A stretch of 49,622 nucleotides of DNA, the filler included, from Jimgerdemannia flammicorona (lineage: Eukaryota), in assembly GCA_003990765.1 (NCBI GenBank). It is 2 parts of 2 records of this genome, joined end to end, with 100 filler letters (N's around TTAATTAATTAA, not from the genome) between each part and the next. Parts side by side here need not be neighbours in the genome. Positions count along the whole stretch, not along the records: positions 1 to 24,762 come from RBNJ01000928.1; 1 more part is not named here. The stretch is one strand, 5' to 3'. The notes under the pieces were generated by a model. That model saw only the letters and a program-made list of their open reading frames with translations, made no database searches and was not told the DNA's origin. Positions 1 to 47,365 of the stretch are shown here, piece after piece. The position numbers and the translations under genes are program-made. Each line of letters begins with the position of its first letter. Within the stretch, counting starts at the first letter, position 1.

Positions 1-598
1 GCACCACCCCACCCCCCACCAGCCAATCGAAAGGCCCTACCGAAATATTATCCGCCCCAACCCCAATGACCACCCCCAGCCTGGCACCCCACTGGTTCAC
101 CGTAATCGCCCTTCCTCCTATCTGTGATGGCCATCTCCCCTCCCATCCCGACATCACCCGAAAAGCAGTCACCTACGCCAGAACCGCGCTCGCCGGGAAG
201 CTCGCCAAAGCCAGAGGGCCCCACCACAGGCACCGAGGACCTGCAGGTAACCTACACTGAGCACTTGACGCCCAAGGTCGGCCGACTCCCTACATAGCCC
301 GAGATATACCGAGACAGCACCTTGTTGACGACGGCAAAAGGAAGAAGGCGCCGCACTAAAACGGATGCACTCCAGATGTAGCTGAAGACACCAGAAACCG
401 CGAAAAAGTGGAGAAGACACCGATCTGACACCAATAAAGGGGCAACTCATCACCATTGCCCTCCTCCCACCATGCCCATGTAGGTACAGCAAATCAACCC
501 GAGGTAGAGGGGGTAATAATAGGGGAAAGGGGACTCAGAAGGTCGCCTACCAAACCTTGTGACCGGTAAGGTAGCGGAGAAAGGGGCGATGCTGCAGC
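1..598. repeat. Unclassified interspersed repeat (copy 1), abutting the broken end of LINE A
   Basis: About 75-270 aligns with about 25485-25683, differing largely by CpG>TpG/CpA changes. LINE ORF2 homology stops at about 599 (after ...KVAKGWI). No domain recognised. Confidence 0.65.
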
Positions 599-2900
599 TC
601 AAATCCATCCCTTGGCCACCTTCACCAATTGCTTCACCACCTAGGCTGGAAAGTCCAGATGATAAGCCAAATACCATAGTTTCAGCAGTCAGTATACATT
701 CAAAATTGAGATCCTTCCTGCCAGAGAGAAGTATCTTCCCCCCCAACCCCGCAGGTCCTCTTCCCAAATTCCAATTCTCTGCTCCCACCACAGCCTGGGC
801 AGAACAGATCTATAGACTGACAAATATATGCCCAAGTACCGCACTACCTCTCTGGTGGGGACAATTGTTCCAATAACCTCTCCACCTATCAGTCCATTGC
901 CTAACACCATTGTTTCACACTTGTGCCAATTCAGCTTCACCCCAGAGTTCTCCTCATACCACTCCACTATCTCCTTGAGCTCCTCAACATCTGCAGTTAC
1001 TCCCAAACCAACCACCATGTTATCTGCAAAGACTCCAACTTTCCAGCCAATTCTATAGATAGAAAGCCCCACAATCCTCCACCAAATTCGGTCCATTAGA
1101 GGCTCCAAGGAAAGTGTATACAAAATGGGGGACAGTGGGTCCCCCTGGGGCACTCCCCTACCCAGAGGGAATGCTACCCCTCTATGCCCATTACACACGA
1201 GTGCAGCCCTACTCCTTTCCAGTAGGCTGACCATCGCCACCTGAAATGGGACTGGAACCCCAATTCTATCCAATACTTTCATCAGCCAGACTCACTACAC
1301 CCAGTCATAAGCCTCTTCTGGTCCAAGAAGACAAGACACCCATCCAGTCTACAGGCTCGAGCACCCTCAATAACTCTGTGCACCCAGGCCATGCCATCTC
1401 AAATAAGCCGACCCCCTATGAAGCCCCTCTGCTTAACTCCCACAATTTGCTAGGCCACCTTTTGCAGCCTTGCAACCACCACCTTAGTCACCAACTTTCT
1501 GTCCATATCTAGCAACATTATCGGCTGCCAGTTCTTCCAATCCTCTCGCCTTCCTTTGTTCTTATAAAGCAGTATCACCAGCCCAAGGTCCTGCTCCCCC
1601 ACCCATCTCCCTGACTGCAATATGGAGTCACACAGTGCTGTCAACTCTCCCAATATGCCCGGGACTCCAACCATTCGCTTCCAGAAGTCCCAGGGGAGGC
1701 CATCCTCTCCAGGCGCCATACCTGAGGCTGTCGCAACAAGAACCTGGTGGATCTTGTCCTCCTTTACAGGCATCACCAGGTCACCTAATCCCTCAGCTCA
1801 CGGAGGGTGCCAATCTTCTAATGTTTGTTCAATGGCTGTAGTATCTGCCCCACCCTCCTCCTCACTCTACAATCCACTCCATCATGCCTTCAGCATTCCA
1901 AGGATATTCTGTACACCATGCACTAGTCTACCATCTGAGTCAAGTACCCCTTCCCACTACTGCTGTACCCTTCTTGCTCGAAGCATCCTCATAAGAAACT
2001 TTGAAGGCCTCTCCCCTTCCTCCAGCCCCTGCCAACAAAGCTGCACCACCAGGCCTTGTATCCTTGACTCTTCCTCTTCCTGCAGCACCTGTTGTAGTTC
2101 CCCAACCTCCATCTTCACCCTTGTTATTCTCCAATCCTCTTCTCCCTCCACTACTGCCAGACTCGCCCACTCCTCCAGAAGTCTAGCCAATCTAGTAGAA
2201 GTCCAATGCACTCTCTGCCTTCACTGCCTCCCAGCCACTCTGCCAGCCTCGCTCTAATACATCCTGGCCATCTCCTTCATCCTCCTCTACTGAACCCCAA
2301 TTGTGGCCTCTTCCTGCTACCAATTTGCCACCTTCATCTGAATGTCATTTGCCCACTCCTCCCACCGGGACTCATCATCCAACAAGGAGGAATTCAGGCG
2401 CCAATGTCCAGGCCCATCACCACTTCCCCCAAAACACCCCGTCCTCTATCAGTTCTATCCAGCCGTATGTCCTGAACCATATTGAAATTGCCTCCAAGTA
2501 TATTCAACCCAGCTTCAGCAAGAATCCCACTCTCCAGAAGCCCTTTTACCCAATCCACATGCTCCCCCCGCACAGCAGAGCAGTAACAGGAGCCAACTGT
2601 AACTGGCTCCCAACCTGCATGAATCCACTCACCCCAGACCAGTCTCTCCCCCCAGCTCCTCACATTCTGTATCTCCCCTCTGCCTTTCCAAACCAGAATC
2701 CTGACCTTGCTGTTCCAAATCGCCGTGCCACCCCATTCCTTAGTCCATTTTATCCTATCAGAATCATCCTCGCACCTGACATCCTGCAAGAGGAAGAGAT
2801 CGGCCTCCAATCTCTTCAACTAAATAAAAATGTTCCTACATCTAACTACGCCCCTTAGCCTATTCACATTCAAAGAAAAAATGTTGGTTGTACTGTTCAT
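599..2900 (-). pseudogene. LINE ORF2 (APE endonuclease + reverse transcriptase), disrupted
   Basis: Starts MNSTTNIFSLNVN. Motifs DLFLLQD, GGNFN, APGEDGLP, NWQPIMLLDMDRK, LDQKRLMTG (frameshifted DQEKAYD), GRGVPQGDPLSP, FADN (YADD-like), RYLG, SLAGR. Multiple stops and frameshifts. Confidence 0.93.
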
Positions 2901-2930
2901 AATGAAATATGGTTTGTTTGCAATCAATCC

Positions 2931-4961
2931 CTACTGCTCCATGCCCATCTCCTTCTGTGCCATGTCCAGATTGTGTTCAGCCATCACCTCCTCCTCTGCA
3001 GCCCTTTGAGCCTTCAGTCCAGCTAACAGCTCATTCATCTCCTCATTAGCCTTCTCCTCAAACTCCTCTCTGTACTCGATGCAAGCCTCCTGCCAAAGCT
3101 GCAGCCCATGACACCTATTCCAACAATACTCAGCCTTCTCCCCAGCAATAACTGCCAACTCTGCCTCCCTCTCCTTGTCCACCTTATACCCTTTCTTCTC
3201 CAGATACACTGCAAGAATTTCCGCCTTCAGTGCCATTGCCACTCCTTCCCCCTGCAAAATTCTCGTCCAGTGCTCATCACCCATCCCATGCAAGTCCACC
3301 TCCCCCAGCTCTTCTGCCGCCAGGTTGTTCATCATCTGGCACATCCAAAGTAGGTTCCCCACCTCCTTCCCACCAGGGGTCACCAGCCTCCCACCATCCA
3401 GCATCGTGGTGTCAGCTCCAGCACTCGTGTCCTCATCCCATACCTCCGGGACATCCACCAGTTTCTCCTCCCTAGCCGCCACTACCTGGTCCCCATCCAT
3501 TACCTCCGGAATGCTGAATTTCACCTTCTGGGTCCCCAGCATCATCACATCCTCCCCAGATTTGTTCCTGGAAGCTGGGCCACACCTGATAAGAGGAGAA
3601 GGGGTGAGGGAGTTCTCCCAGACTTCCTCCCAAACCTCCAAGGTGCCATCCACATATGGGTCACTAATCATCACCTCCTTTGCCTTCTCTGTCTTTGCCC
3701 CCTCATTCCCACTCCTCTCACCAGCCCAGACACTCACTCCAGCCCCTTCTGCACCTGTCTTCATGCTCGCATCCTTTGGTGGTCCACCCCCCAGTTTAGC
3801 CAGCAGATTCTTCTGCCTCTTCCGCCCCTGAGCCCTTTCCCACTGCACCTTGTCTACTCAAATCCTCTTTCCATCCACTATCTCCAGATACATCGACTCC
3901 TCGAAAGTCTTCCAGGCCTTGGCACACTGTTCCACAGCCCCATCCAGCTCCTCCAGCACTTCCAACAAATCCTCCTCCTCTTCTTCACTTCCTTTCACCT
4001 GCGTCACCTTGCACAGGAATGCACCCCAAACCATTGCCGAAGGCCAGTCCCTCATCTTCCCAGTAGCCTCTTTTCCGGCCAGCCAAATCCTCACATCCAT
4101 GTCTCCAGTCCTGAGTGTGGTCCCTTTCCAGACCCTGAATCTGATATCCACCACCTTGCTGTACTCTGCCATGACATCCTCCACTCTCTTTCTCATCTCC
4201 ATCACTGTCACCATGGGGACTCCTTTCACCAGCAGTTGGACCACCCTCAGATCCTATTTCAAACACCTTGCCATCGGAACACACATCTCTCCAACCATCA
4301 GCCCAACCCTTATTGCCTCCTCTAGTGGTTTGACCTCCTCAAAACCCACTTCCACCCCCTCCAGTCCCTTCAGGAACTTCACTGAAGCCGCTCCAGCCAC
4401 CTGCTTAGTGATAAGCCCCAACACCATTTTCACCATCACCACTAAGCCCCGGAAACACAGTGTGACTGCGAACGCCAAGATTGACTTCTTGAGTAACGGA
4501 GCCACTGCCAGTCCCATTACACCATCCGCCAGATCCCCTGGCCTCATGCCCTTCCCACCATTCGGCTCACCATCAGCAGTCCCATCTAGATTTTTTTCCA
4601 GATCGCCCATCACACCCCCATTAGCAGTCCCTGCCCCAGCTGCTACCCCCCCAGCTCTACCCCTATGGCCCTCCAGAGAGGTACCCCCAAGAGGTTGCTG
4701 CCTGGCAGCCTTCACCAGTACCTTCCCCCCTCACAGCCAGCTCTCCAGTCCAGCCCCTTGCTGACCCCCCTTCATCTTCTCTGCAAAGCTCACTCTGCCA
4801 GACCCTTGACCTCCAGCTCCGCCCCCTCCTCCACTATGGCCTCCTGCTAGCAGGCCTCTCATACTTCCCCCCAAGCCGGGGCCCCTCCCCACCTGCTGCC
4901 ATTCAAATGCTCCAGGGCCACCCTGCCCAGTACATACCTCCAGATGCTCATTGGTCACCAT
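2931..4961 (-). pseudogene. LINE ORF1 (gag-like/RRM-like plus acidic coiled region), disrupted
   Basis: Collinear ORFs 4731-4961, 4254-4715, 3858-4244 and 2931-3848 lie in one frame separated by single stops. Homologous to ORF1 in the other LINE copies and lies 30 nt upstream of the ORF2 ATG. Confidence 0.88.
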
Positions 4962-5152
4962 AATACTAGTAGCTTTTCTCCAGAAACTTGTGTTGAAAGT
5001 GTTGCCAAAGATTGTGTAACCTGAATGTTACCAGAGAAAGGTGGTGTGATAAATCAGCTCTTAGTTAAGTACAAAATACAAGAAGTCCCCTCTCTATATA
5101 TATTCTCTCTGAGTTCTTAGTAATAATACCTAAGTTACTCTAGTATTCTAAC

Positions 5153-5763
5153 TAGTACTCTGAATAAGTTAATTCGGATCAGATTTGAATTCCATCCAGA
5201 TCAACTCAGATGAAATTTGAATCCCATCTGGATGGATTCAAATCTCATCTGGATGGATTTGTTTGGATTTCCAAATTAGACAATTAAAGTTTTACATCAA
5301 TAACTTAATGAATAATTATCTAATTTTAATGATCTTGATGTCATTTGAAAGCTCTTAATAAGGCCTTTCTAATGATATCAAGAATATTGAAATCAGATCA
5401 TACATTGCCAAATTATCAAGGAAACCATCTAACTCACTGATTTTGGAAATTATTTGACTTGCTGATTTTGGAAATTTTATCAAAAGAACATTTTTCTTAA
5501 TAGCTCAGCAATGTATAATCCAATGTTAATATTCTTGATATCATTAGAAAGACCTTAATAAGGGTTTTTCAATGACACTAAGATCATCAAAATTGGATGA
5601 TTATTTGTTGAGTTATTGATGTAAACATTTAATTGTCTAATTTGGAAATTAGATTCAAATTAATCTGGATGAGATTCAAATCTCATCCAAGTTAATTCAG
5701 ATGAAATTCAATCCAAATCAATCTGAATCTAATCCAGATTAAATTGACTTGTTTAGAGTACTA
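5153..5763. mobile_element. hAT-type MITE / foldback element 1
   Basis: Termini TAGTACTC...GAGTACTA, long imperfect internal palindrome, flanked by 8-mers ATTCTAAC (5145-5152) and ATTCTGAC (5764-5771). Confidence 0.85.
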
Positions 5764-5771
5764 ATTCTGAC

Positions 5772-6299
5772 TAATGCTCCTAATGAGTCAATTTAATCTA
5801 GATGAATCCCATCTGGATGGATTTGAATCAACCATTGTTTTAATTTCCAAATTAGACAATTAAATGTTTACATCAATAACTCAATGAATAATGATCCAAA
5901 TTTGATAATCTTGGTGTCATTTGAAAGCCCTTAATAAGGTCTATCTAATGATATTAAAAATATTGAAATCAGATCATGTGTTGCTGAGTTATGAAGGAAA
6001 ACATCTGAATTGCTAATTTTGGAAATTATTTGATTTGCTGATTTTGAAAATTTTGTCAAATAGAATGGTTTCCTTAATATCTCAGCAGCATGTAATCCAA
6101 TTTTAATGTTCTTGGTATTATTAGAAAGGCTTTACTAAGGGCTTTCAAATAACACTAATATCATTAAATTTGGATTACTATTCATTGAATTATTGATATA
6201 AATATTTAATTGTCTAATTTGGAAATAAAAACAATAGTTGATTTGAATCCATCCAGATGGGATTTGAATTCCATCTGGATTGACTTATTCAGAGCACTA
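5772..6299. mobile_element. hAT-type MITE / foldback element 2 (same family, tandem with element 1)
   Basis: Termini TAATGCTC...GAGCACTA, palindromic, similar to element 1, flanked by ATTCTGAC at 5764-5771 and 6300-6307. Confidence 0.85.
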
Positions 6300-8737
6300 A
6301 TTCTGACTAAACTTCAGAAGTCTAGCTAACTTCTACCAAACTAAGAACTAGTATATAAATCTAAAAAGGAAATCTCTTTGAATCTGAATTATAAGAGATT
6401 TAGTCTATATATAGAAAGAACAAGTCTCTTAGTAACTATGGTTATTGAAAAAGAATAGTACTATTATTTCTACTATAAAAAAACTGTACTTTCTCTATCT
6501 TAATATATATAATTAAGTAAAAGAATAATTAAAAGACTTCTTAATATATATATATATCAAGTTTCTAGATATTATCTTATTATCTAAGTTATTCAAAAAT
6601 AAGCTTAGAGTGGTTATAAGTATTATATATTACAACTTGGTAGTAGTAGAATTCTAAGCTAAAATAGTATTATAACTCTCTATAAGTTAGAATTAAGACT
6701 CAATCTCAGATAGAAAAAATTTCATAAATAAGAATCTATTTAGCAGTAGTCATTAGAATCAGGTAGAGCTAGAAAACTACTAATCAAAATCTCAATCAAT
6801 AGTTAGTAGATCAAACTTACTAGAATCTATATAAAATATTTAAAAATTACTACTCAGATCTTAGAAATATCTATATATCATAGATTCAATATCTTTATCT
6901 GAAATTACATTAATATTATTAAGATATCAGAATTAACTACTACAGCTACTCAGGTATTCTTAAATCATATCTTTAAAATCTCTACTATAGTATAAATAGC
7001 TATCAAAGAGTAGATTAAATCCAGATATGATCAATATTCAGATTATATAAACTTCTGACAATATGAGAACCAAGAACTAAAAGAGTGAGCTTTGTAGATA
7101 AGATAAAGAGAGATCATCCAATAACTGGACTGAAGGGCTGGCTGAAGAAGGGCAAGGAGATGGTAAGGGCTGTAGGGTCTGGTGAAGTGACCCATAGTAG
7201 TGAGAGAAGTAGGGCTGGGGGAGTAGTAGCTGGAGAGAGTAGGACTGCTAATGACAAGGAGACTACTAATCTGGAAAAAAATTCAGATATGATAGTTAAT
7301 AGTGGATCTGGACAGAGGGTAGGCACAAGGTCCAGGAATCTGGCAGATAGTATGATGGGTCTGGTGACAACACTGTTACTCAAGAAATTAAGGTCAGAAT
7401 TTACTATCACATTGTGTTTCTGAGGCTTAGCAGTAATGGTGAGGATAATTCTAGAGCTTCTGATCCAGAAGATGAAGGAAGCAGTATCAGTAAAGTTTTT
7501 GAAGGATCTGGAAGAGGTGGAGATAGACTTTGAGAAGAAGAAGATACTGTTAAAAGTGATGATAAAGAGAATAATAGTGGAGGAAGTAGTGATCTCTATA
7601 GCCTAGTACTTATATTGAGACCCCTGAGTAGTATAGCTAACAATACTGGATATTTCTATAGTATCAAAGAAAATGGCCAAGGAGTTGATTATAAAGGCCA
7701 TCAAGGACTATGAGGATATTATAGATATTAGATTTTGGGTCTGAGAAGATACAGAATTCAGGATAAGAGATATAGATATCAGGATATAGCTAGTAGGTAA
7801 GGAGAATATAGAGAAGGTAAGAGACTGGCTAGTAGTTCTCAAGTTGGGACCTGTGAAGTACAAGATCTCAAGAGTGGAAGAGATACTAGAGAAAGAAGAG
7901 GACTTGTTGGAGATATTGGAGAATTTGGCTGGAGATATAGAGAGAAGGAGATTGATCTAGAAGAAGTATGAGACCAAGACAGTTATAGAGATTGTGAATG
8001 GTAAGAAGGTGTAACTAGATTGAGCAGTCTGAGAGAGGGCATAGAAGAGATACATTCAGAAGGACCTGCTGGCTAGGAGGGGGGATAGCCAGGGAGACTA
8101 CTATTGGAAAAGCTAGATCAAAGGTGAGTGTCTGGGCAGGAGAGAAGAAAGCAGCACCAGAGGAGACCTCAGGAGGGAGAGAAGGTGCAGGGCTGAGTGT
8201 TATTGTGGAAGATACTGAGATGGTGGAGGGGGAGTGCCCTCAGTATGAGGTGCCAGATGAGGCTAAAGGTGATGATGAATTGTAAGATATACTGAAAAAG
8301 AATTGGAATGAGTTAGTGAGGAGAAATGCAGAGAGTAGATAGGCAGAAAGAGAGAAGAGAGTGGTCTAGAAAGTAGCAGTGTAAGAGGGTTGCTTTTTAG
8401 GATAACCATTACATAGTTCTGGAAAGGTTTTCTGGATATTCTGGATATTCTGGAAGACCGTTTTCTTATGGTCAAGATCAATTTCATATGGAGTACGTCC
8501 TCTATGCTTATTGATTTCAAGATCAGGTTAACGTCTCAACCAAAGTCCTTTTTTGGACTAGTTCTGGATGTTCAGAATTTTCCATATTTCAGGAAGTTCA
8601 AGAAACTAAGACTAGCTTAGTTGAATTAGTGTATTGCTGCAGACAATACCCAATTAGGAAATTTTGTGATGGGGTTAGGAGTGGGACCTAACAGGGAGTA
8701 GATTTACTTAAGAGTGGTTTGTGGGTTATTAAATAGG

Positions 8738-8993
8738 TTTATTTGCTATTCATAATATTGCTATACTAGGAGTAGTTGTGTAAAGGGATATTTGTGGGGA
8801 AGTATTCAGAGATGTTCTTGTGTATTTTTGTCTGAGATTCTGAGATCTGGAGGAGGGAGTATTTATACTAGTGAGGGGCTATCTGGACTATGCTAGATAT
8901 GGATGTAGCACTAAGTGCCTTGCTGAGTCAGAATATAGTCACGTAGTACAAGTGTGATCTGACATATCAAGAGATCATCTGACTGCTGAGTCA
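8738..8993 (-). promoter_or_regulatory. Putative canonical LTR promoter and poly(A) signal
   Basis: Two TGACTCA sites (8924-8930, 8987-8993), TATAAAT at about 8861-8867 and AATAAA at 8738-8743, all on the minus strand in U3-R order. Confidence 0.5.
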
Positions 8994-9056
8994 GTTCACA
9001 GTCACATCATATAAGGCTAATCTAACTATACTATGACTACTAGGCTATTTATGGGT

Positions 9057-10154
9057 TTAAGCGCTGTCTGGGTAGTTCTCGATGACATTACCATCAATTG
9101 CATCATCTCTGATGAAGTAGTCATCTAGGAATAATGGTTCATAGATTACTTCTCCTTATTCGCTGAGGTAATAATACATTGGAACTTCATCTCTGTCCCA
9201 CAGAATAGCATTGTCTATTTTATATGCTGGATAAAGTGTTGGTGGGTGAAGGATGGGTGTATTGTCTTTGCTTTCATTGGATTTGCTATCTGTGTACCTT
9301 CTATAGGTTATAGCACTATGAGTTGCAGGATTGTAGTAAGCTGGCAGCTGTGGTTCATGTTGCTCATACTCAGGTGGTAGAGTGATTGGTTCGATCTTGA
9401 GGGTTGTCTGAAGATACAAGTTGTGTTCTCCAGTCTCTTCATTGTAGTTGAAGTAATTGGGGGTGAACACGGGTTGGTATTCGTACCAGTAGTCATTGTC
9501 CCAATAAGTCTCATATGTAGTTATGAACTGTTGTAAGTTCATCAGCAAGGTTGGTGGTGTGACCAGGGTTGGCAGAGATCCTTGGCTAGAGGTCATGTCG
9601 GCGTCAGAGGGATCATTGTCTTCTGCTTCATCTTCATCGAAGTGGATTATATCGTAGATATCCTTCATGACGTATCCAACTTAGGGCATTTATAGGATAT
9701 GGTCATTGGGGTGTGGGAAGGTTCTATCTGTAGTTTTGACATACTCGAGATACTTCTGGTTGAGTTCTTGTATCATGTCATCGATTTAGCTATAGGACAG
9801 GGTAGTAACCATTTCGCTGATAGTAACTTGGAGGCGGGGAATAAAGGTACTATACTTATAGAAAAGTTCTCGATATTTGTAGGTGATCAGCTTCTGGTAT
9901 TGAGACATCTGGGTAATATCTGTATCATGGTGGTGTTCGACCATGTCTTCTAGGAGGCGGCTGATCTGGTAGTAGCTTGAGATTTGTCCAATTTGGTAGG
10001 CCTCACTAAGTATGTTCAGAGCATTCCATCGGGCTTTCACAAAGTAGAGGGGTACCAGGCTATGGATATTCATGAGGGGCAGAGGGGGTGTGGCTCGGTT
10101 GACAATGGCATTTCAAATGTCAGTGCGAATATAGTTGTAGATCTCGGTGGTCAT
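9057..10154 (-). pseudogene. Unknown 365-codon accessory protein inside the solo LTR
   Basis: One unbroken frame from ATG 10154 to TAA 9057 that includes ORFs 9786-10073 and 9156-9668. Five internal stops (1 TGA, 4 TAA), all explicable by C>T, and no frameshifts. Acidic, Tyr/Pro-rich C-terminal half. Confidence 0.8.
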
Positions 10155-10224
10155 GTTTGTGTATTTGGAAGTTTGTGTTTGTTGTTTGTTTTGGTTCTCT
10201 GATTCGACGTGTCTTAGTGCTCGG

Positions 10225-10330
10225 TATATATGCATTTGGTCCTGATTGGTAAGATTCTGTTTGTGTAAACCTTGTGTTCTGTAACTTCATATTGACTCAG
10301 CTTTGTGCGCTGTGACTTCGGTTTGACTCA
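10225..10330 (-). promoter_or_regulatory. Putative Pol II promoter of the LTR-borne ORF
   Basis: TATATA 10225-10230, CCAAT 10245-10249, two TGACTCA (AP-1/Gcn4-type) sites at 10293 and 10324 in a duplicated TGACTCAGCTTTGTG block, and a CAA-rich leader to the ATG. Confidence 0.55.
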
Positions 10331-13300
10331 GCTTTGTGATCAAGCAGGTGATTTCCAGATTTGTTCAGAGGTCATGTGTGTTTTCTGTGGCTTTTTCAGA
10401 GGGTGACGTGTAATTCCGGCAGCTTGGAGGTTGTACACTTACAAGCAGAGACTGAAGTCAAGGAGAAATGGCTGTGGAAAATACTTGAGAATATGGTGGC
10501 TGAGGAGCTGGGGGGAGAGAACTTCTGAGTACTAAGTAAGAGATACTGGGGTAAAATCTTATATAGTGAGGAGATGCTATAAAAACTTCAGGATGAGATA
10601 ATGGTGATATTGCTAAAGGCTGAGGTATATCAGGTCAACAATAACAGAGAGGCAGCACTTCTGACAATTGTAAATAACAGAGCTGCTTATATGTGAGACC
10701 TGAGAAAAGAGCTGATAAAGTGGCAGATAGTATACAAGGAGTATCATATAGAGATGGAGGCTATGAATAGTGTAGATTATCAAGAGATCTTGGAGGCATT
10801 GGAGACTTAGTAGGGAGAGGTAGATGAACTGGAGGTATAGAGGAATCTGGATGTTGCTGGTGATACAGTGAGCATGAAATTGTAGAATAGACAGCTATTC
10901 TTTAAATACCATTATTCAATATAAACAGTATAATCAGAATCTTATCTTTGAATGTCAATGGGCTATAAGGAGTAGTGAGGTAGTGAAATATCTTTAGATA
11001 GCTAAAGAGGACAGAAGTAGATTTATTCCTACTGTAGAATATTGGGTATAATAGAGACTTAGATAGTCTGGACTAGATAATAGAATAGGGGGATATGGCT
11101 GTTTAGTGAGGATATATAGATATTCTGATTAGGAAGGGCAAGGGAGATATTGAGGATATTAGATATTGGAGGAGCAGAGTAGTATAGAGAGTTTAGAAGA
11201 GGTCAGGCTGGAGGCCCTTAACAGTTGGATCATATTATTATCTGGTAGAAAGAGAGGAGAGAGTAGAATAGATTCAAGAGCTATAAGAGTCCAGAGCATT
11301 GATGGAGATGGGGATTGATTATCTAGGGGGAGACTTTAATATAATATATAATAGAAGATTAGACAGAACTAATGGTGGAAGGAGAATAGTAGGTAAGAGT
11401 GGTAGTATAGAAGCCTGAGAGGAAGTTGAACATTTGAGCTCTTTGGTAGATACCAGGAGGCTTGAATGGGGGGATTGTAGGATCTTTACCTACTAAGTGA
11501 TAGGGCTGGGCTTAAGAATTAACTAGATATTGACTGCTGACTGCTAGAGAGTTGATATCTGAAGAACTTTGGAAACAGTTTAATGTCTATGATCAGATTA
11601 CTGGGGTCTTCTTGGAGAGAGGTATTTTGTGAGAAGTGGGGAGGGGCCTAGACATTGGTGACTGAATATCTCTTTACTAGAAGAGGTCTCCCTATGAGAG
11701 GTATGGGTGGTGGATATTAGCTCAAGGATTCTTGATTAGAGGGCTGAGGGGCTGGAGATTGGAGATCACTAGATATGATTGAAATCTGAGACACAAAAGT
11801 ACTGATGAGAAATAGGCAGGATGTGGAGTATTCAGAGGAAGAAGTAAATAAGGTGGGTCTCTCAGAAGTTAGCAAGGTTGTTAGTGACTTGGGCAGAGCT
11901 GTTAAATGATAGTACTGTTGTCCAAAGGGAGGAGATTTGGCAGATTCTGATGATGATAAGCTCTGAGACTACACCAGGAGAGGATAGCTTATAGTGGGAT
12001 TTCTGGAAGAAGATGGCAGAAGTTGAGTTGGTTCTGGAGAAAATGACAGTAATATGTAATGAAGTAATTGGCTCTAGAGTATAGATTGGAGGGCAGAGCT
12101 TAGACCTTATGACTCTACTGTTTAAGAATAAGAGAAAGAGGAAGGAGTGGAAGAACTGGAGGCTAATCATACTTCTGGATATAAATCACAAACTAGTTAT
12201 AAAGGTACTGATAACTAGGCTGCAAGGAGTGACTCAATAGGTTCTGGGGTCTGAGTAGAGAGAATTTGTAGGGGAATAACTAATCAAAGATAAGATAGCT
12301 TGAATATATAGTATTATTGAGAGTGCTTACACTGCTGGAGTGAATGGATGGTTGATTTTCTTGAACCAGGAGAAGGCCTATGACAAAGTCTGGTGAGTGT
12401 AGTTAAAAGGAGTACTAAAGTACATTGGGGTCCCCTCTGGGGTCTAGAGGGTCTTAGTCAGTCTGCTGGAAGGGAATTGGATGGCAATTATAGTAAATAG
12501 ACATAGAGGGGTTTCTTTCTCTCTAGGTAGAGGAGTGCTGTAGGGGGATTCACTATTACCAATTCTGTATGCATTATCCCTAGAGCCTCTTTAGATAGGA
12601 TATGGTAAAAGATAGGAGGGTTGAATATTCTGGGGGTTAATTGGAAGGTAGGGGTCTTTGCTGACAATATAGTGGTTAAGCTGGGGTCAGCTGAGGATAT
12701 TGCAATGCTGAAAGATACTATAGAGTAGTATGAGGGGTACTCAGGTGCTAAGCTCAACTGGTATAAGTATGAGACTTTGGTATTAGAAGAAAAGATAGCT
12801 AGTAGAGATATGATTAGAATAATTATCTCTATAGGAGAGGCTGTTCACTATCTGGAGATTTACTTTTCAGTATATGGCTCTTTACTACTATATAGGTGGT
12901 AGGAGCAGCAGTTGACAGAGTGGGGAGGTACTCTCTTGAGGTGGAGTGGTCACTATATCTCTGATAGAGAGGATAATAGTGTTGAATATCTACTAGATGC
13001 CTAAGCTGTAATATCTAGAGTACTACTTGGACTTCCCAGCATAGGTAGTCAAGTGATTGCTGAAGATGACCAAGATCTAAATATGGGTGGAGTAATGGAG
13101 TCAGATTGGTTGAGAGATATTGACCTAGCCAATAGACTAGAGTGGCCTGGGCCTGGTGGATTTTTCTAAGTATCTTTACTACTTGAGAGTATAGTAGATG
13201 AAGCAAGTGAGCAAGTTGAGAGACAGAGTGTGGGTTTCCCTCATGCAGAGAGTGTGGGGGGTCCAGTTCTTCTCCCATAGTACAACTGGGGATCTTCTAT

Positions 13301-15109
13301 CTCTAGTGATATTGGAGGCAAGTCAGAGGATATACTATAGGAGATTTTAGTGAAGAGTAGTTGATAAGGTACACCATATTGATCTCTGATAGTGGGGTAA
13401 TGAGAGAGAAGAGAAATGAGGACCCCAGATATAGAAGTAGAACTACCTTCTATTGGGCAGAGCACTAGTGGATGACTTCTATTTAGAAGATAGCATAGAG
13501 TACCTTTGGGAATATAGAAGAGATCTGTGGTCTGAGATGTGATAGAGAGTAAAGATTAGAGAGAAGTAGGACTAAAATAGTATTTAGCAGTAAGGCAAGC
13601 AGGTAGTGAGATAGATCTCTCTCAAGTTCTGGGTAGTATAGTGGAGAATTCTATAGTATAATATAATATTGAACTACTAAATAGATTACTTAGTAGAAGA
13701 AAGAACCCAGAAGTATAAGGAGTGTCTGAATATCAGGCAGGAGAGAGGAGTGGTACAGATGCCTAAATATTGATTGAGAGAGTGTGAGATGATGGATAAC
13801 TTTTAGAGAGAGATTGAGATATAGCTAAGAGTCTATCCATCAGGGTTGGCAGCTGGAGGGAGGTGAGATAACCTCTGAAGGAGGCTGGTGGGGGGGTTGG
13901 GAGTTAAGTGGTTAATATTAAGATAGGTGCTGGCAATTTGAATCAGTCTTATAGATCATTGGCTTTCTGTATTTGAGAAGAATCAATGGTTGAAATTGGG
14001 GATGAAGGTGACTAGATAGAAATGGCTAATGATAGATATGTTTAATAAATAGTAGAGGAGTAGGAGTGCTAGTGAAAGGTATCAGAGGCAATTAGTGAAG
14101 ACTATCTGTAAGAAGAGTGGGGGGAGGATTGGGGTAGTAGGGAGATTGATAGTATTTTGAAGAAATAGTGAGAGGAAAAGAGAGTTTCTGAGTGGAATTA
14201 GGTGAGAAGCTCATTTATATCAATAGTATATTATAGACAGTTTGGTAATAAAGTAGAAGTCTATATGATTATAAAAAAAAAAGGTAGATTAAATCAGATC
14301 AATACTATACCACTTTAATTTAAATATATCTCTATTCTTAAGTAATAATCTACTATATAAATTTAATAACTAGATATCAATAAGAACAATTAGACTTATT
14401 AGAATAGTAACTCGATATATAGATATATGACTTTATGCTATATATCATTCTATCAGTTTTATATTATTTATTAGTAATATATATATAAAATATATAATAT
14501 ATATATATTGAATAAATTACTTCTTCTATTTATTACAACAGATTATGAGCCCTGGTTAGTAGCTAGAACTTCTCTAGTTTATATACTATACCAATGAATA
14601 TGGATATAAGCTAGAGTACTAAGATGGGTGTCTCTACAATGGTCTCCTAATAATAGAAAATATAGTTCTGTTATAAGAAAAATCTGTAGCAATAATGAAG
14701 TTCTCTCTGGTAGCAGAAGGCAATTATAACAAAAGTGTCTACCTAGGTATTTGAGGTAATTACAAGTTCTCTCAGATAGCAGGTAAAATTCTCTCTAGTA
14801 TTAAGGTAATTATAAAGTCCTCTCAAGTGATCAAGGCAATTATAACAATAAGTTAGTAATATAGTCAGCAAAAATATAGCAAATGAGATCAGTAATATAG
14901 TCAGCTGATGAGACTACAGAAAAGATTAATAAGACTGATAATATTAGGAAGAGACTAATAAGCCCAGATGAAACAATTATAAACAAGACAAGAAATGTAG
15001 CCAATAAGGTCCAAAGTGTAAATAAGGTAAGAAATACTATATATTACAAAGTCAAAAGTATAGATGCTGCAAATAAAGTCAGTATAGATAATAAGATCAA
15101 AATAACATT

Positions 15110-16478
15110 CATATTATACAAACTTTAAAACACACTTTTGAATTATTTATTAGAGAAAGATACTAAGAATATAGCAACAAACAAGTGAGCTGACATATAT
15201 ACTGAGTTGAGTGAACCTGGGGCCTTTAACTGGCAATAGTCAGAAGAGAGTATAGATTGGAGATAGAGACTTTGAGAGGTTCTAGAGGCCAGGGTAAGCT
15301 GAGCAGTAGTGGCTAGTCTGGTATAGAAATAAGAGGGCAGGTGGAGCTAAGTTTTGTAGACAAGGTAAAGTTAGGAGGATAGTCTATTAGAGCTGTTGAG
15401 GGAAGGGAGAGTAGCAAGAAAAAGTCAAAAGAGATAAGGGCTAGTGGGTCAGCATCTTAGGTGGTAGATAGAAGGGCTGATAGAGCAGTGACTGAGAGAA
15501 GTAGTAGAACTGCTGATTAGAGAGTAACTGAGGATCTGGAAAAAAATTCAGATATGACTACTGATAGTGAGACTGGATTACAGAGGCTGGAGAGAATCAA
15601 TAGTATGATAGAACTGGTGATTACTCTATTGCTCAAGAAATTGATTTCAGAGTTTATAGTCATACTGTGCTTCAGGAGATTAGTAGTCATAATAAAGATG
15701 ATTTTGAATCTGATTTTGAAGCAGATGGCTGAGGCAGCTTCAGTGAAGTTTCTGAAAGGGTTGGAGGGGGTCAAGGTGGGCTTTGAGGAGACTGGACCCT
15801 TGGAGGAAGCAATGAAGATAGAGTTGACTATAGGGGAGATAGTGGTTTCTATAGTATGCTGTTTGAGGTGGGACCCAAGGGTGGTTTAGCTCCTGGTAAA
15901 AGGAGTGCCCATAGTGACAGTGGTTGAGATAAAGAGGAGAGTTGAGAAGGTTATGGCTGAGTATAGTGAGGTAGTGAATATTGGGTTTCAGGTCTGGGAG
16001 AGGACCTTGTTTAGGACAGAGAATGTGGATATTCATCTCAGGCTAGCAGGAAAGAAGACTACTGAGAAGCCACAGGATTGGCCAGTAGTGATGATGTGGG
16101 GAGCCTTTATCTGCAAGGTAATGAGAGTAAAGAGAAGTATGGAGAAGGAGAAGGACCTAGTGAAGATATTGAAGGAGCTCAGCAGGGTGGTAGAGCAGTG
16201 AGCCAAGGTATGGCAGAATTATGTGGAATCAACACACTTGGAGATAGTGGATGGAAAGCACATTTGAGTGGACAAAGGTATATGGGAGAGGGCTCAGGGG
16301 CATAAGAGGCAGAAGGAGCTGTTGGTGAGTCTGAAGTAGAAGGAGAAGGAGAAGACAAGCTTAGAAGAGGAGGCTGGGAGAGCTAAGGAGAGCATCTGGG
16401 CAGGGGTGGAGGTTGGGAGGGTACCAAAGCATATAAGGATCAGGCTCTCTATGATGATGGCATGCTGGAGGTGTACTG
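15110..16478 (+). mobile_element. LINE copy C, 5' UTR plus partial ORF1 only
   Basis: ORFs 15554-15889 and 15905-16201 are homologous to ORF1 (AASVKFLKGLEGVKVGFEE, MAEYSEVVNIGFQVWE). Homology ends at about 16478. Confidence 0.88.
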
Positions 16479-16900: not shown

Positions 16901-18331
16901 ATGTCGGGACTGAGTCATATAATACATATATCACATATCACCGCTCAGATCTTACCGAATACCCCGATAATATAGTTTTAACCGAGGCCTCGATATTCAA
17001 GCCTGCCAACTAATCATATATTGAGCATGCCCTTGTTCACCATCATTGTTGTGACGTCTTATATTCCAAACTCGATCCGGGCTTTTGGTGACGCCTCACA
17101 GATTTTGTTACTACTGCGCGCACCGATGGGTTGAAGCTGTCATTGTTGTCGGATAGCATGCACCAGAATGGACGGTCTGGTCGATTTATCTTCGTCAGTG
17201 TCAGTTGCACAGAAGGAACACCTTTCCGAGGATAGGATGAAAGATAATGATTATGTATCGAATAGTTAACCTACTCATAAGCTCTAGCCGTAGAGCGCCC
17301 ACCCTTTTTGGCTGGCTGCACTACACCCCGCCTTCTGACTACCAAATACTAGTGTCGTTCTGCGACATCTTGTGATATAAAAACATAAGCCAATAAACAT
17401 CTCATTATAGAATGGCATCAAAATGGTAATCCTACCTAGGAGCATAACACTAATTGACTTCAACGACAATGGTAATGGTATCGTGTCCGATTCTCCCAAA
17501 TTTTTTTGCAAATCCCACAAAACTTGTTCAATAATATAAAGCACAGTCAAACCCTCTATGACAGATTTTACACCAGAATTAGACCGCGTTAAGAATGGGC
17601 ATTGGAGGGGATTACCAATATTTTGAGGTAGCTGATCAAGTAATCGCTCATTTTCTATTTCAATACAATTTGGTCAAATTGCGTCCGTCCCCGCCATGTC
17701 TTGTACGCAAATACGCCAGCGAAGGGAAGCCTTCACTATTTACAACAACGCGAAATAATTGAGGATTGGATTTTGTGGCATTGACGTTGGACAAAATAAC
17801 TTCGACTAATACGCAAACTCATGAAGCAACGGCACACCGCAATATCGATGTTCCAAATCCTTTTTGCCTTTACTATCGGGATAGTTTTATGTATTTTGAA
17901 TTGCAGAGGCATTTCTTCAACAACGTGGGATAATCGCAAGGAAGACGGAACTATTCGCTGTCGCTTTCCAAGTCGTAAAAGGAATATGCCTAGCTTTCGA
18001 GTATGTCGGGCCATATCTCTCTCTAGCTTAAGGCGCCCATAGAAAATCCCAAAATCATAGGATCGGTCACCAGCCATAGCGCATCCTATCTATATCAACA
18101 ATTAATTTCTCGATCTTGAAACCCGGTTACTATTGTTTATTCAATTCGATCGATCATTAAAACTAAACTTTGGGGGAAGGGGTGAGAACCCGTCAAACTC
18201 ACACATCAATGTACCGGCAGCTGCATACTTCTTTGTCTCATTATTTTATTTATAAAAAATTAACCGTACATGCAGATTTACATGCCCATTACTAATCCGA
18301 AATTTACATTGACAAGCGATTGTCCCGTGAA

Positions 18332-19572
18332 TTACAAACCGGCCAGCGGTGCAATCTGGACATTGGGAACCTCCTGGTTGAAGATAACGTAGTTGTTCTT
18401 TATGAATACATCACCGAGGATAGCGAAGCTAAGGAAGTTGTATCCGAAACCGGCAATGCATGGACCGTCGGTGTTCTTGTCGAAGCCTTGGAAACCTTAA
18501 ATTTACCGGTCCCGATGGAGAAGGAGAAATCAGCGAGGGCGGAGATATAGTTGATGTTATAGGTATATACCGTCGCCATTGTCGGTGACCTTGAGCTGCG
18601 TGGCCAAGGCGGAGGCGAGGCTGTCCGGAAGGAGGAGAAGGTGTCGATAATGCCCTGGAAGGAGCGGCCGACGGCCTTCCCGCCGAAGGTAATGCCGCCC
18701 ACGATCACGACCCGAAAGCCCTGGCTGTTGTCGACGGGGATTGTGGTCAGGGTGCCACCGATCTTGGTCTGGTCGTAGTCGCCGAAGATGTATGCGCCGC
18801 CGCCTCCGTTTGATGCCTTGCCCAAGAAAACATCGAGGATGGGGTTACCAATGAGGTCCTGGCTGATGAGGTTGTCGACGGGATTTTGACGCCGGAAACA
18901 GTGGCAATGCTATTGAAGCCAAGGCCAAGGAGACCGTCAATCGGATCATTCTGGAACGAGGAAGAGATCTTGGATGCCGTGTCGATGATCTGGCTTTTGA
19001 TTTTTAGCCCGCCGAGGTTGAAGGGATCGACGACAAGGATTCCGGAGGAAGTTGATCCATCGCCGTATTGGATGGACCACGGGCGACCATCCTTTTTGTA
19101 GGTGCTGCTCTTGGTAGGATCTACATGTTATTGCCCTTGTAGGTTGTCTTGCAGCTGGCGTACGGGAACTAGATATCAGAGGAACCCGTATCGAAGTCCA
19201 ACTTGAAGGTTTTGCTGGGCATACCGATGGTAACGGTGGCGTAGTATTCAATGTCATTGCCAACCTGTCATATATGAGAAATATGTATTAGAATACAAGA
19301 GTATTTTGTGGAACATGGCAGGCATTGCCCGAAATGGTCCGTTCGCCCAGGCCCACTTACATCAATGACCAGGAGGGTGGCGACCGATCCTGTTACTCGT
19401 AGCATGGACCTGGTACTTGCGCTTGACGACTGACGGGTGGCGTTAGCTTGGAAGGCCGGGTTTTAATGGACGGGAACGGACCATCCGGTGTGCTTGTTGC
19501 TGTAATTGACGGGGCCAGCTTGAACAGTGGCGGCCACCCAAGGCGGCGATACATACAGATAGCGATCTTCAT
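18332..19572 (-). pseudogene. Secreted aspartic protease (rhizopuspepsin-like, peptidase A1) pseudogene
   Basis: Signal-peptide-like start MKIAIC. GT-AG intron 19265-19360. GNDIEYYATVTIG, LDFDTGSSDI*, WSIQYGDGS, DGLLGLGF, GKASNGGGGAYIFG, GIIDT (truncated second DTG), AILGDVFIKNNYVIFNQEVPNVQIAP. Premature stop, frameshifts and deletions. Confidence 0.93.
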
Positions 19573-22186
19573 TATTGAGGGGGGAATCCCAACTAAATTA
19601 GCTGCACATGCTCGGTCGCTGGTCAGGGTCGAGATGCCAGCAGCTCCGGGTAATATTGTTGAATGCTGTTGGCGCACCCGGGATCAACTCCTCGCGAAGG
19701 CCATCTGGTTTTCTGGCGAGGGCCACGGAATGGAGGATAATAAAGGCAAAGCTTTATAATACATATAGCGCGTACTGATTGGTGACGTAGACAATTGCGT
19801 GTAAGCCACAAATTCTAGATATATTAGAGACGGCCACTTTTAAAAAGTTACTTTCCACCGGCACCAGAGGTAACATTTCTAAAGTGGCCAACAACAAGCA
19901 ATATCCTCTTTCGCCATTAAAGGTCCATCACCTGGCAATAGGAAGGCACAAAGTTCGGATACTGTAAGTACCCCCAAAAAAGACATCCGATGGCTACAAT
20001 CCAGCTGAATTTGGGGCGGGTAGTCTAAGATGTAGAATTTTAATTTTGTGCCGTTCCATAAACGCGGAAACGTGTGAGCAGCGGCCCGTTTTACTTGAAA
20101 GGGCAGCAGAGACAACAATGAATAGTAGATACATAATTTCGATCACCTTTATCTGGTGTTTCTTTGAACTTGCACAGGCAACAATAATAATAATACGTAT
20201 GAAACAGGGGAACAATCCGGTACACAGAAATCATCACCCTTTGTTTGCCCACGTGCCGGTATTTATATTGTTGACTTAGGGTTTTGACCCCTGCTATGCA
20301 AATTCGGCAACATGGCGTGGGATCCACGAGATGCAGATGATCTTTTCGACAGTAATCGGTTCCGTAGTTGCCGTCACGTAATGTGGGTATATACGAATTT
20401 CGCCACGTTGAGATTACCAAACATGTCAGAGGGTGAATCTGGCGATGAAGAGCTGTTGTCCGTTCAATAGCACACCGGTACAAATTACAGACACAAAATT
20501 CACGCGGTTTGGATCGACAAACTGTAACGTAAATGCGGACGCTGCCCACGCCGTGGCATGTCAGCCGCTTGTCTTCGTCAATGCTGCGCATGGTCCGTTG
20601 GCAGGAGGCGATGAGTATAGCATATAACATTGCCCCTCACAGGAAAACCGATCCAATCCCATAAGGCGGTTCTCCCGTTCGTGAATATTCTTGATATGAC
20701 TATATAATTAGATAGTGTCCGTAACATCACGCAATTCAATTTTTATTTATTGGAACCCGACGTAGTGAACCACTCTCTTCTTGGTGCGCGCAAAGAAATT
20801 TGGTGCGTTCCATAATTTCAACCTCCACGCGCGAATTCTCGCTATTCGGGGTTTACGATACTGTTGGCGCATAGGTTTGCTTGAAGTGAGTTTTGTTTTT
20901 GTATCCTCTGGGTAATTGTCAACGTTGATGTCTCACTCCTTTGTTTGTTGTTTGGTGTTGTGAAATGGTCTTTTTGCTTGTTAGGTCTTCGCAATGCTCC
21001 TTTGTGTTTGACATTGTAATCTCCCATGCCCTGTAATAATATAGAACCCATGTGCTCTTGCCACTAGATAGCTTTTGAAATAATGTATTAATGCCCTTCG
21101 AATTATTCAGGGACCAGTCCTTACAAAAGGATTGAGCTCAATACATCTCAGAAGCTCTTCACGACCTCACAAATTGATGACAAACAATGCACTCGGGGGA
21201 TTTTTCTCCGGATATTTCTTGATGGGCCTTTGGTTTTCCAATTAGTCTTGATTATTGTTGTATAGTGTTAGCCGATTCAATTTATTCGTGATACATGTCA
21301 AATTCCTCAATGTTACATATAGTAGACACCAAAGGCGAAAACCAATGTCATACCTGACACCTACACTCCTTTTAGCACGAGAGTCGTCTTGCACATTCTG
21401 TTTTTGTTATACCTAAATTTCAATATCAATCGTTTCACATAAATCTGGACTTTTGTTCCGATCATCTAACGTATTGATACTGATCTCATCAAATCCAAGG
21501 TCTGGGTGATGGAGCTCATAAATAAAAAAAGGGAAGAATATGGCTATGGCTGCCGCTACAATATGGGATAGGATCATATATACTGAGATTATCAAGTCTT
21601 TATCCCGAATTAATAAATTTGCATTGAGGGTAACATACCTCTCCAGCACGGATGCTGGAAGTGGAGATATAGGCCTGTGAAACAGAGGAGAACGGGGTTT
21701 GAAATTTTGGACAATGTATAAATGCGTCGAGACTCGCGATTATCAGTTGGAGATGGGCCCCATCTTGTAGGCAAGGCTGGATATGAGAATTGGCACGACA
21801 AAATATTAATTTGGCGGCGACCACCATGTAGGAGATGGGGACGTTGGTATGACATGTGAAGGAGGAGTCGATGGAATGTGTAAATCCATGGAATTGAAAA
21901 AGAAGCGGCTGACGAGGTTGGTGAAATGCTTGCTATCCCAAACCCCAACTCTAAGTAGAGCGACCCGCAGAATCCCGAGCCGGGCAATATCCAAAAAAGG
22001 GACACTGTTTGGCATCGGCGCCTATTCTGTAAATTGGCGATAGTGCGGCCACGGGATGCTTATGCAAAGGTAAGACCCATGCATAGAGGCCATCTGCCTC
22101 GACGATGTGGTATATTGGATAACGTAAGCACCCTTCATAAAAAATCAACCAAGTCACGCGCCATACAGCACTTCTTCCACGAAGCA

Positions 22187-23020: not shown

Positions 23021-23196
23021 GGGTGTGTTAGTAGATGGTTTACTTTGGCTTTGCCACGGTTTTCAAGCAGGCTTGATACTTCGTGCAACTGTTTCACACA
23101 AAATCCGCATACACCACTCAGTGAATCTCGAACCGCGCAGTGTAATGAAAAAGAGTAAAAAGAAAACTGCCAATGGATAATCAAATAAAATATGCC

Positions 23197-23245
23197 AAAA
23201 AAAAAAAAAAAAAAAAAAAGCAAAAAAAAAAAAAAAAAAAAAAAA
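23197..23245 (+). repeat. Interrupted poly(A) tract
   Basis: A23-GC-A24, preceded by AATAAA at 23184-23189. Confidence 0.9.
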
Positions 23246-28600: not shown

Positions 28601-28690
28601 ATATTTTGCTAGTACTTTTTCTTTGAGTTGTATGGAAAACTATTGCTTGAAGTTTGTATTATGTGAATTATATGGGAGAAAGGGTGTGTA
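25684..28690 (-). mobile_element. LINE copy D (5' UTR, ORF1, APE domain; RT missing)
   Basis: ORF1 pieces 28092-28568, 27471-28088, 26991-27446 and 26579-26990. ORF2 ATG at 26548 (MNSTTNIFSLNMNG) with APE motifs. Ends at 25684. Confidence 0.9.
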
Positions 28691-29163
28691 GACTTTTGTT
28701 TACACAAATGTCATTGCCATAGGGCTAAATACTAATGTACATTTTGCCATCATCTTTGCTGTCATCTTTAAGTTATTTTGCCATTATCTGCCTTGTCTGT
28801 CATTACCTGATGAATGACCTATACCTTATTGACAAATGACCTATACCTCATTGCAAATGGAAAGCTTATATGGGCAGCCTTGTTTTATAAACTTTTCGAC
28901 GTCAATGTACTCCACTATTCATATATGTTTCATGGTTACCATACCAACTCCTATGTATTTGTAATGTAATTTGTTGGTTTTTTTTGCCAGACTTCAACTC
29001 ACTGATGATATGGTTTCAGATATCAGTAAACAACTTTTTCATTATTTAAAAGAAGTTAAAATGGTATGGAGAGGTAGAGAATATCAAAATAAATATATGA
29101 AAAAATTTTTAAATATTTAGCTTTATTATAAAATAAATTATGGCATAAAGAATGTTAAGATAA

Positions 29164-32480: not shown

Positions 32481-32482
32481 TC

Positions 32483-47363: not shown

Positions 47364-47365
47364 TT

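Follow-up and report, generated by a model that had tools for sequence, protein, structure and literature searches.

A decayed gene inside a probable solo long terminal repeat of Jimgerdemannia flammicorona

The subject of this report is a 2064-bp unit at positions 8380–10443 of a 49.6-kb stretch of Jimgerdemannia flammicorona DNA (49,622 nucleotides, filler included), referred to below as the window. The unit is best explained, with reasonable though incomplete confidence, as a dead solo long terminal repeat (LTR). Its source would be an LTR retrotransposon of a Mucoromycota-like soil fungus that carried an accessory gene inside the LTR, and it lies antisense in an older repeat. Recombination between two LTRs probably left it there. 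The unit is a true, discrete insertion that stands alone between continuous flanks of the host repeat. Within it, a frame of 365 codons is still legible on the minus strand. Judged by its two intact relatives, this frame is a real, formerly functional gene that has decayed in the present copy.

The insertion, its copies and the decayed gene

The borders of the unit can be read directly. On the minus strand it extends for 2064 bp between the termini TGTAAG...CTTACA (window positions 8380–10443), and a 6-bp terminal inverted repeat closes both ends, giving the TG...CA termini expected of an LTR. On the plus strand the left border, between 8379 and 8380, reads ...GTAGCAG / TGTAAGAGG..., or at greater length GAAAGTAGCAG / TGTAAGAGGG. 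The right border, between 10443 and 10444, reads ...CACTTACA / AGCAGAGAC..., or at greater length TGTACACTTACA / AGCAGAGACTG. A perfect 5-bp target-site duplication (TSD), AGCAG, is present at 8375–8379 and again at 10444–10448. Such TG...CA termini together with a 5-bp duplication are what a retroviral-type integrase leaves behind.

The site can also be seen in its state without the insertion. The flanks align to a paralogous repeat within the window, the left flank to 42720–42973 and the right flank to 42989–43274, and this paralogue holds the target site as a single copy (42960–42990). The spacing between the two repeats is 34591–34592 before the unit and 32532–32533 after it. The difference of 2059 equals the 2064 bp of the unit less the 5 bp of the duplication. 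In addition, one soil-metagenome contig (run X1) connects 8374 directly to 10447 without the insert. The AGCAG duplication is thus accompanied by an empty site that is demonstrable both in the paralogue and in the X1 contig, as is found for inserted LTRs. The unit is considered solo because the same host repeat continues on both flanks and no second copy was found within the window, by DNA or by protein. The features of the insertion are as follows.

7274–8379, plus strand: older host repeat, left part, with a strongly G-rich plus strand and a CpG observed/expected ratio of 0.0
8375–8379, no strand assigned: left TSD copy AGCAG, found once at the empty site of the paralogue
8380–10443, minus strand (sense): probable solo LTR of 2064 bp, from its termini, the lack of a second window copy and the contig cover that ends at its borders
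10444–10448, no strand assigned: right TSD copy AGCAG, from the border sequence
10449–11661, plus strand: older host repeat, right part, which extends further, from the match to the paralogue
42960–42990, plus strand: empty site in the paralogous host repeat, from the flank alignment

Public sequencing runs have revealed that the unit is a discrete, high-copy repeat in soil metagenomes, which account for 13 of the 17 runs containing parts of it. Four runs from four studies yielded 2995 (X1), 392 (X5), 332 (X6) and 407 (X3) contig pieces on the unit. Contig cover in these runs begins and ends at 8380 and 10443, which is the behavior of a dispersed repeat with constant borders. The summed depth of X1 is at most 4.2 in the flanking bins (8180–8345 and 10504–10643) and at least 355 in every full inner bin (8429–10420), with values of 445 and 17 in the bins that straddle the borders. 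The gene region is represented in many contigs of the four runs. The X6 contigs fall on 8429–9092 and 10006–10420 and hardly on the open reading frame (ORF); that X6 represents RNA is a guess, and nothing is concluded from it.

The gene begins with an ATG at 10154 on the minus strand and runs for 365 codons, without a frameshift, to a TAA stop at 9057–9059. It is interrupted by five internal stops, a TGA at codon 14 and TAA at codons 123, 155, 158 and 333. The remaining two sense frames of the same stretch contain 17 and 33 stops, and in none of 2000 composition-preserving shuffles did any frame have five or fewer. A list of ATG-started ORFs breaks the gene into ORFs of 170 aa and 95 aa. The original prediction had described the 2064-bp insertion with its perfect TSD, a 365-codon frame broken by five stops and a gene divided by the ORF track into two small ORFs; these descriptions are all borne out.

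9057–10154, minus strand: decayed gene of 365 codons plus stop, from P0002, P0003 (see below) and the shuffle test
10113–10115 (TGA), 9786–9788, 9690–9692, 9681–9683 and 9156–9158 (all TAA), minus strand: in-frame stops

For the search for relatives, the frame was translated through, with X at the stops, to give the query P0001. Two relatives emerged: P0002, which is of comparable length (347 candidates scored), and P0003, which is shorter (21 scored). An exhaustive HMMER search over 1,835,955,588 representative proteins of all lengths left these two as the only credible matches, with E values of 2.4e-97 and 3.2e-61. P0003 (128 aa, truncated where its 1180-nt contig ends) has the same MTTEIYN start and is identical at 105 of 128 positions (82%, aa 1–128) in a gapless alignment. 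P0002 (247 aa, from a 998-nt contig) is identical at 156 of 250 positions (62%, aa 115–364), with 81% positives. Its alignment contains just two gaps, each of 2 residues and in frame, and it finishes with the same ...YPDS(I/A). Start, end and frame of the predicted protein are conserved, in these alignments, down to 62% identity. The candidates P0004 and P0005 were rejected as relatives, being internally repetitive proteins in which one short stretch was matched many times. No host homologue of the gene was found in the searches of representative proteins.

The relatives also reveal how the gene was lost. In place of the stops they have W (codon 14) and Q (codons 123, 155 and 158), and P0002 has N at codon 333. 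The stops had been predicted to be C>T-type throughout. This holds for codons 123, 155 and 158, where CAA became TAA through C>T on the sense strand. It does not hold for codon 14, where TGG became TGA through G>A on the sense strand, and the ancestral codon at 333 is not fixed by the relatives. The four assignable stops are all C:G>T:A transitions. Other copies retain the earlier state: at position 9788 all contigs carry the base giving CAA (codon 123), and the read majority restores the P0003 residues at codons 86, 92, 100, 109, 112, 117 and 122. Transitions account for 237 of the 255 differing places in X1 (93%), several of them at former CpG pairs. The CpG observed/expected ratio is 0.41 in the unit, 0.0 in the surrounding older repeat and 1.04 in the gene-bearing region at 17–24 kb. 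This pattern fits a repeat-directed CpG decay and a nested, younger insertion. The present copy cannot make the protein because of its five in-frame stops; in this decayed form, the gene persists on a solo LTR.

The codon-aligned antisense frame (9060–10154, plus strand) has 7 stops in 365 codons, with few TTA, CTA and TCA codons. Its product is a V/I/F/L-rich mirror and is most likely a by-product of codon usage, though the depletion is marked.

LTR identity and putative layout

Beyond its termini, the identity of the unit is suggested by junctions in other copies. One X3 contig, in the minus-strand orientation, carries GAAGGGGAGAGT directly before TGTAAG, which resembles a polypurine tract (PPT). 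One X5 contig continues past the end of the unit with ACT and TGGTAGCAGCAG, a sequence resembling a primer-binding site (PBS) located 3 nt beyond the 3′ end. The PPT-like and PBS-like junctions appear to make sense only in the orientation of the gene. A purine tract before the 5′ end and a PBS-like site after the 3′ end fit an LTR that shares that orientation. From these features, the unit is likely to be the LTR of an LTR retrotransposon.

A matching junction occurs within the window at 6630–6649, where TTACA-ACT-TGGTAGTAGTAG (TTACA-ACT-TGGTAG(T)AG(T)AG) lies in an unrelated, more decayed and AT-enriched element. It is identical to the junction of the X5 contig apart from two C>T changes, and a single tRNA primer probably serves both families. 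The full-length element at 30838–41418 likewise has TGG three nt after the ...GTTACA of its 5′ LTR. No tRNA gene was found in the window. Before the PBS-like site at 6638 lies an AT-rich stretch, which was considered as a decayed copy of the LTR. This was rejected, as a transition-tolerant local alignment gave 112.5 vs 116.5–122 for the controls, which were reversed and reverse-complement sequences.

Short motifs within the unit suggest how it may be divided into the unique 3′ (U3), repeat (R) and unique 5′ (U5) regions of an LTR.

10271–10332, minus strand: motif block 1, two GCTGAGTCA-N6-AGT(C/T)AC units, with TGACTCA on the plus strand at 10293–10299 and 10324–10330
10245–10249 (CCAAT) and 10225–10230 (TATATA), minus strand: putative gene promoter, 71 nt upstream of the ATG
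8921–9026, plus strand: motif block 2, two GCTGAGTCA-N6-AGTCAC units, with TGAGTCA on the plus strand at 8924–8930 and 8987–8993
8861–8867, minus strand: TATAAAT, putative LTR (genomic RNA) promoter, with the end of U3 placed ~30 nt downstream
8738–8743, minus strand: AATAAA, the only one of the element on this strand, putative poly(A) signal in R
8380–8737, minus strand: putative U5 to the terminal CA, placed from the signal positions

Read along the minus strand, the order would be the terminal TG; block 1, with enhancer-like units of the AP-1/Gcn4 type, CCAAT and TATATA; a leader; the gene; the inverted block 2 with TATAAAT; AATAAA; U5; and the terminal CA. The leader between block 1 and the ATG is A/C-rich, with ACAAAC directly before the ATG. 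The motifs named in the original prediction were all located (two TGACTCA or TGAGTCA per block, CCAAT, TATA, TATAAAT and AATAAA). Its description of the blocks needs two amendments: the repeated unit is longer, a 21-nt GCTGAGTCA-N6-AGTCAC present in four copies in the element, and the unit pairs of blocks 1 and 2 are inverted relative to each other. The distance from TATAAAT to AATAAA is ~120 nt, and that from AATAAA to the terminal CA is ~360 nt. The unit contains the whole ORF (9057–10154), which precedes TATAAAT and AATAAA; the U3/R border is placed by motifs alone. The most economical borders would be 10443 to ~8835 for U3 and ~8835 to ~8720 for R, with the remainder as U5. TATAAAT is the likely promoter of the genomic RNA, which would put the gene in U3. 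A further TATAAAT, at 9688–9694, is a by-product of a stop mutation.

The same motifs can be read in another way. If block 1 is the genomic promoter, then the gene would lie in R, the leader, and the ORF would be the first cistron before gag. The ORF0/ORF1 found in plants, in Retrosat2 or Ogre-type elements, would be comparable, except that the R enclosing the present ORF would be very long. It is true that block 1 has the fuller promoter-like set, with two units, CCAAT and TATA at 71 nt before the ATG, and that the only AATAAA follows both blocks. However, R would have to span ~1.5 kb, and a strong TATAAAT with its own unit pair stands ~120 nt before AATAAA, the canonical U3–R spacing. In the available part of its description, moreover, the ORF0 of Retrosat2 sits in the internal region upstream of gag-pol and not in the LTR (PMC3485330). 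A gene located in R is therefore regarded as unlikely, and its placement in U3 is preferred.

A second alternative dispenses with the retroelement, and its chances are slimmer still. The unit would then be a small mobile element, complete in itself and bounded by short terminal inverted repeats, either non-autonomous or an integrase-mobilised DNA element, with the gene as its sole cargo. The TG...CA ends and the 5-bp duplication reveal the type of integrase and not the internal part of a retroelement, and the window holds no paired copy; both facts would suit such an element. It is opposed by the PPT-like and PBS-like sequences, which other copies carry at the expected ends, in the expected orientation, and by the matching LTR-end/PBS junction in another element of the window. 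The unit also has no terminal direct repeats and no transposase-like domain, as judged by Pfam and by repeat comparison. A search of 8000–10800 against Rfam returned nothing.

The predicted protein and the weight of the evidence

The full protein is acidic, with an isoelectric point (pI) of 4.4, 55 D+E residues vs 22 K+R, 51 aromatic residues and no cysteine. This character is unevenly distributed. The N-terminal 128 residues are near-neutral (P0003 has a pI of 6.3), and the C-terminal ~220 aa are very acidic (P0002 has a pI of 4.05), aromatic- and proline-rich and cysteine-free. The acidic part contains the run DEDEAEDNDPSDAD and a DDYFIRDDAID tail. With low confidence, a near-neutral helical N-terminal part of ~145 aa is predicted, with model helices at residues 3–141. 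The acidic and aromatic composition resembles that of acidic/hydrophobic activation regions. Because of this resemblance, and because the same units are shared by both TATA boxes, it has been guessed, again with low confidence, that the protein may be a trans-acting regulator of its family.

A possible mechanism can be outlined on this basis. A live element would hold the gene twice, once per LTR, and the genomic RNA would carry it at its 3′ end. A separate mRNA of ~1.5 kb could start after block 1 in any LTR, solo LTRs included, and end at the poly(A) site of that LTR. The protein could then act as a helper of the family, either as a transcriptional activator or as an anti-silencing factor, at the repeated units. 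In its fullest form, this proposal holds that the LTR-borne regulator acts via the four bracketing GCTGAGTCA-N6-AGTCAC units, and that solo LTRs are a reservoir of helper genes feeding the full-length elements. It is put forward tentatively, as an idea that more probably fails than holds by a wide measure. Every solo LTR would in that case be a working cassette because gene, promoter and poly(A) site all lie inside the LTR. The original prediction had likewise seen each solo LTR as an expression cassette; since this copy has five stops, the idea would apply to younger copies. If true, an early-diverging fungus would harbor a “complex retrotransposon” whose two promoters form a foamy-virus-like circuit.

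The interest of such an arrangement lies in the way that LTRs are commonly viewed. They are usually taken for control regions without coding content, and a solo LTR for an inert scar or a stray promoter. A selected gene inside the LTR would be duplicated at every insertion and would survive the recombination that deletes gag-pol. Because the gene survives this event, solo LTRs could keep supplying the protein in trans. This would extend the layout of complex retroviruses (sag, nef, tas/bet) to the retrotransposons of early-diverging fungi, and would offer a testable case of the origin of 3′-end accessory genes in retroelements. Genes of this kind would escape pipelines for gene and repeat annotation in which LTRs are masked.

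Several points weigh against an LTR that carries a regulatory gene. The first concerns the retroelement itself, as a paired copy around gag-pol was not seen and the contig scans returned no locus. In metagenome contigs, the pattern A2 gave 532 matches and P0003 gave 92, none of which was confirmed. In genome contigs, a 22-nt stretch gave 0 matches and P0003 gave 56, again with none confirmed. Viral contigs yielded 0 loci with A3, P0002, P0003, a 24-nt stretch, a degenerate peptide motif or A4. The P0003 scan of IMG/VR viral contigs produced one tblastn-confirmed stretch yet 0 loci, and three further patterns found nothing there. The PBS-like and PPT-like junctions were seen in one contig each among the 24 loose ends listed, with 112 further, and the PPT-like junction could be due to chance, purine-rich flanks being common in the genome. 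The primer sequence TGGTAGCAG is presumably complementary to the 3′ end of the eukaryotic initiator tRNA-Met. Of the predicted solo LTR of a retroelement, the termini, the TSD, the empty site, the repetitiveness and the solo state have stood up; the retroelement is represented by junctions in single contigs, with no gag-pol pair.

The remaining points concern the motifs and the protein. The promoter, U3 and poly(A) assignments depend entirely on short motifs. Over the whole window TGASTCA shows no enrichment, with 11 matches vs 10.4 in shuffles; four of the 11 (8924, 8987, 10293 and 10324) lie inside the unit, which makes up 4% of the window length. The relatives are available as protein only, so constraint on the gene is judged from protein conservation. 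The sample of relatives is also biased, as gene callers output open frames only. The function is a guess, with no Pfam family, PDB match or confident fold behind it: Pfam returned 0 families at E up to 10, and the PDB sequences 0 matches at E up to 1. The AlphaFold2 model, built from a 3-sequence alignment, has a mean predicted local distance difference test score (pLDDT) of 31 and a predicted template modelling score (pTM) of 0.20. In the ESM Atlas, the own model of P0002 has a pLDDT of 0.39 and all template modelling (TM) scores are at most 0.30. The best feature matches of P0003 in the same resource reach 0.93, with at most 155 features in common, and recognition is below the bar.

It has also to be considered that the gene may be a transduced host gene or a short-lived passenger, which is visible here through amplification of the LTR after capture. 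The two true relatives among the 1,835,955,588 representatives would fit a young, lineage-restricted sequence. Also cited for this view is a statement, in the available part of a review of additional ORFs, that genes acquired by transduction are found as one copy or a few (PMC7264820). No host homologue was found, however, and at only 62% identity a relative still has the same frame and end, with its indels in frame, a sign that the gene has long persisted under constraint at the protein level. The gene region is also found in many contigs of four runs from four studies. A passenger is judged as doubtful as a small mobile element, and an accessory gene resident in the LTR remains the preferred explanation. 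A chance or artefactual open frame without a gene can be dismissed almost entirely: composition and codon bias can yield long frames and the codon-aligned antisense frame is also open, but no shuffle had so few stops, two database proteins match at the E values given above with the same start and end, and the antisense product is a mirror, rich in V/I/F/L, of an acidic protein.

Surrounding window and known systems

The window contains a full-length LTR retrotransposon at 30838–41418 on the plus strand. Its 1.64-kb LTRs (30838–32474 and 40011–41418) have TGTRAY...GTTACA ends, and it is flanked by a 4-bp ATAC duplication, possibly of 5 bp. Its 5′ LTR is followed, after three nt, by TGGGGCTCAAC, and a dUTPase domain lies at 36336–36833. 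A partial further copy is located at ~46060–49622. The LTRs of the 30838–41418 element were inspected for ORF remnants, and no frame stood out. At 5150–6300 there are AT-rich (24–29% GC) nested direct and inverted repeats, with units of ~200 bp and arms 70–85% alike; weaker copies are found at 30385–30619 and 30992–31277.

The old repeats at 7000–8379 and 10444–14000 have zero CpG (0.0), vs 1.04 in 17000–24000. This loss of CpG points to repeat-targeted decay, through either methylation-driven deamination or a process like repeat-induced point mutation (RIP) that is aimed at CpG. An extreme GC skew of about +0.27 to +0.54, or −0.27 to −0.52, extends over kilobases at 1–5000, 7000–16000, 25000–29000 and 42000–46000, which are related repeats. 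A match to RVT_1 lies at 689–1291 on the G-rich strand of 1–5000, and the sense strand of this skewed family seems to be strongly G-rich and C-poor. The region 17000–24000 is an island of normal composition. It includes a minus-strand ORF at 18400–18909 that encodes a fragment of a pepsin-type protease (Pfam Asp). The fragment is 43–57% identical to rhizopuspepsins of Mucorales and Endogonales (15 matches), including those of Apophysomyces, Jimgerdemannia, Endogone, Rhizopus and other Mucoromycota. By this resemblance the genome is probably fungal, and with the predominance of soil runs the likely source is a soil fungus in or close to Mucoromycota. The ORF at 21959–23020 on the plus strand has a weak F-box-like match below the Pfam cutoff.

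Additional ORFs (aORFs) of LTR retrotransposons form the first group for comparison. These include the env-like and antisense genes of plants, the ORF0 of Retrosat2/RIRE, Botrytis (Boty) brtn, ORF3 of bdelloid rotifers and CERV of Cer1 in C. elegans. Like the gene described here, they are family-specific extra genes of regulatory or obscure function, often orphans, in elements of the Ty3/gypsy type. In the available parts of the sources, aORFs lie internally, mostly between pol and the 3′ LTR (PMC7264820), and the ORF0 of Retrosat2 lies upstream of gag-pol (PMC3485330). The methods text for brtn gives no position (10.1101/2021.04.13.439636), and the accessible text of the rotifer paper lacks the phrases “into”, “within” or “inside the LTR” (PMC5408684). 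The present gene, in contrast, is enclosed by the terminal TG and CA of the repeat and is not part of an internal region. An internal gene is lost when a solo LTR forms, whereas this gene is retained.

The crapaud elements of Podospora have fungal LTRs in which the 5′ (U3) part is evolving and modular upstream of the TATA box. Their LTRs, at 339–443 bp with a variable U3 half, are far shorter than the 2064 bp found here, and the available text mentions no ORF (PMC10787394). The literature search returned no report of a gene wholly inside the LTR of a retrotransposon; it covers few subscription journals and is not proof of absence. The layout is known from a few retroviruses and has apparently not been described for retrotransposons.

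The viral counterparts, sag and in part nef and tas/bet, are similar in arrangement and not in sequence. No homology to MMTV Sag, lentiviral Nef or spumaviral Tas/Bet was detected, with no match either in Pfam (E up to 10) or among the PDB sequences (E up to 1). Foamy-virus Tas/Bel1, which has an internal promoter, and Tax of human T-cell leukemia virus (HTLV) are products of 3′ accessory genes that overlap or adjoin U3, with a promoter of their own and repeated response elements. The likeness lies in the 21-nt unit, which is present twice at each TATA. The present gene differs in that it lies wholly inside the LTR, no homology to Tas/Bel1 or Tax was detected, and activation or DNA binding would be ascribed to its product only by analogy.

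The closest parallel in position is sag, the “LTR ORF” in the U3 of the LTR of mouse mammary tumor virus (MMTV). It is duplicated in each provirus and kept on solo LTRs, and promoters within the LTR are thought to serve it. The two differ in that their sequences are unrelated (no Pfam family at E up to 10) and in that the present gene belongs to a putative fungal retrotransposon without a known infectious cycle. Its protein is acidic and cysteine-free with no predicted membrane segment, and a superantigen-like role is not expected. What they appear to share is a complete sense gene inside the LTR, upstream of the LTR promoter, a position that is assigned here from motifs.

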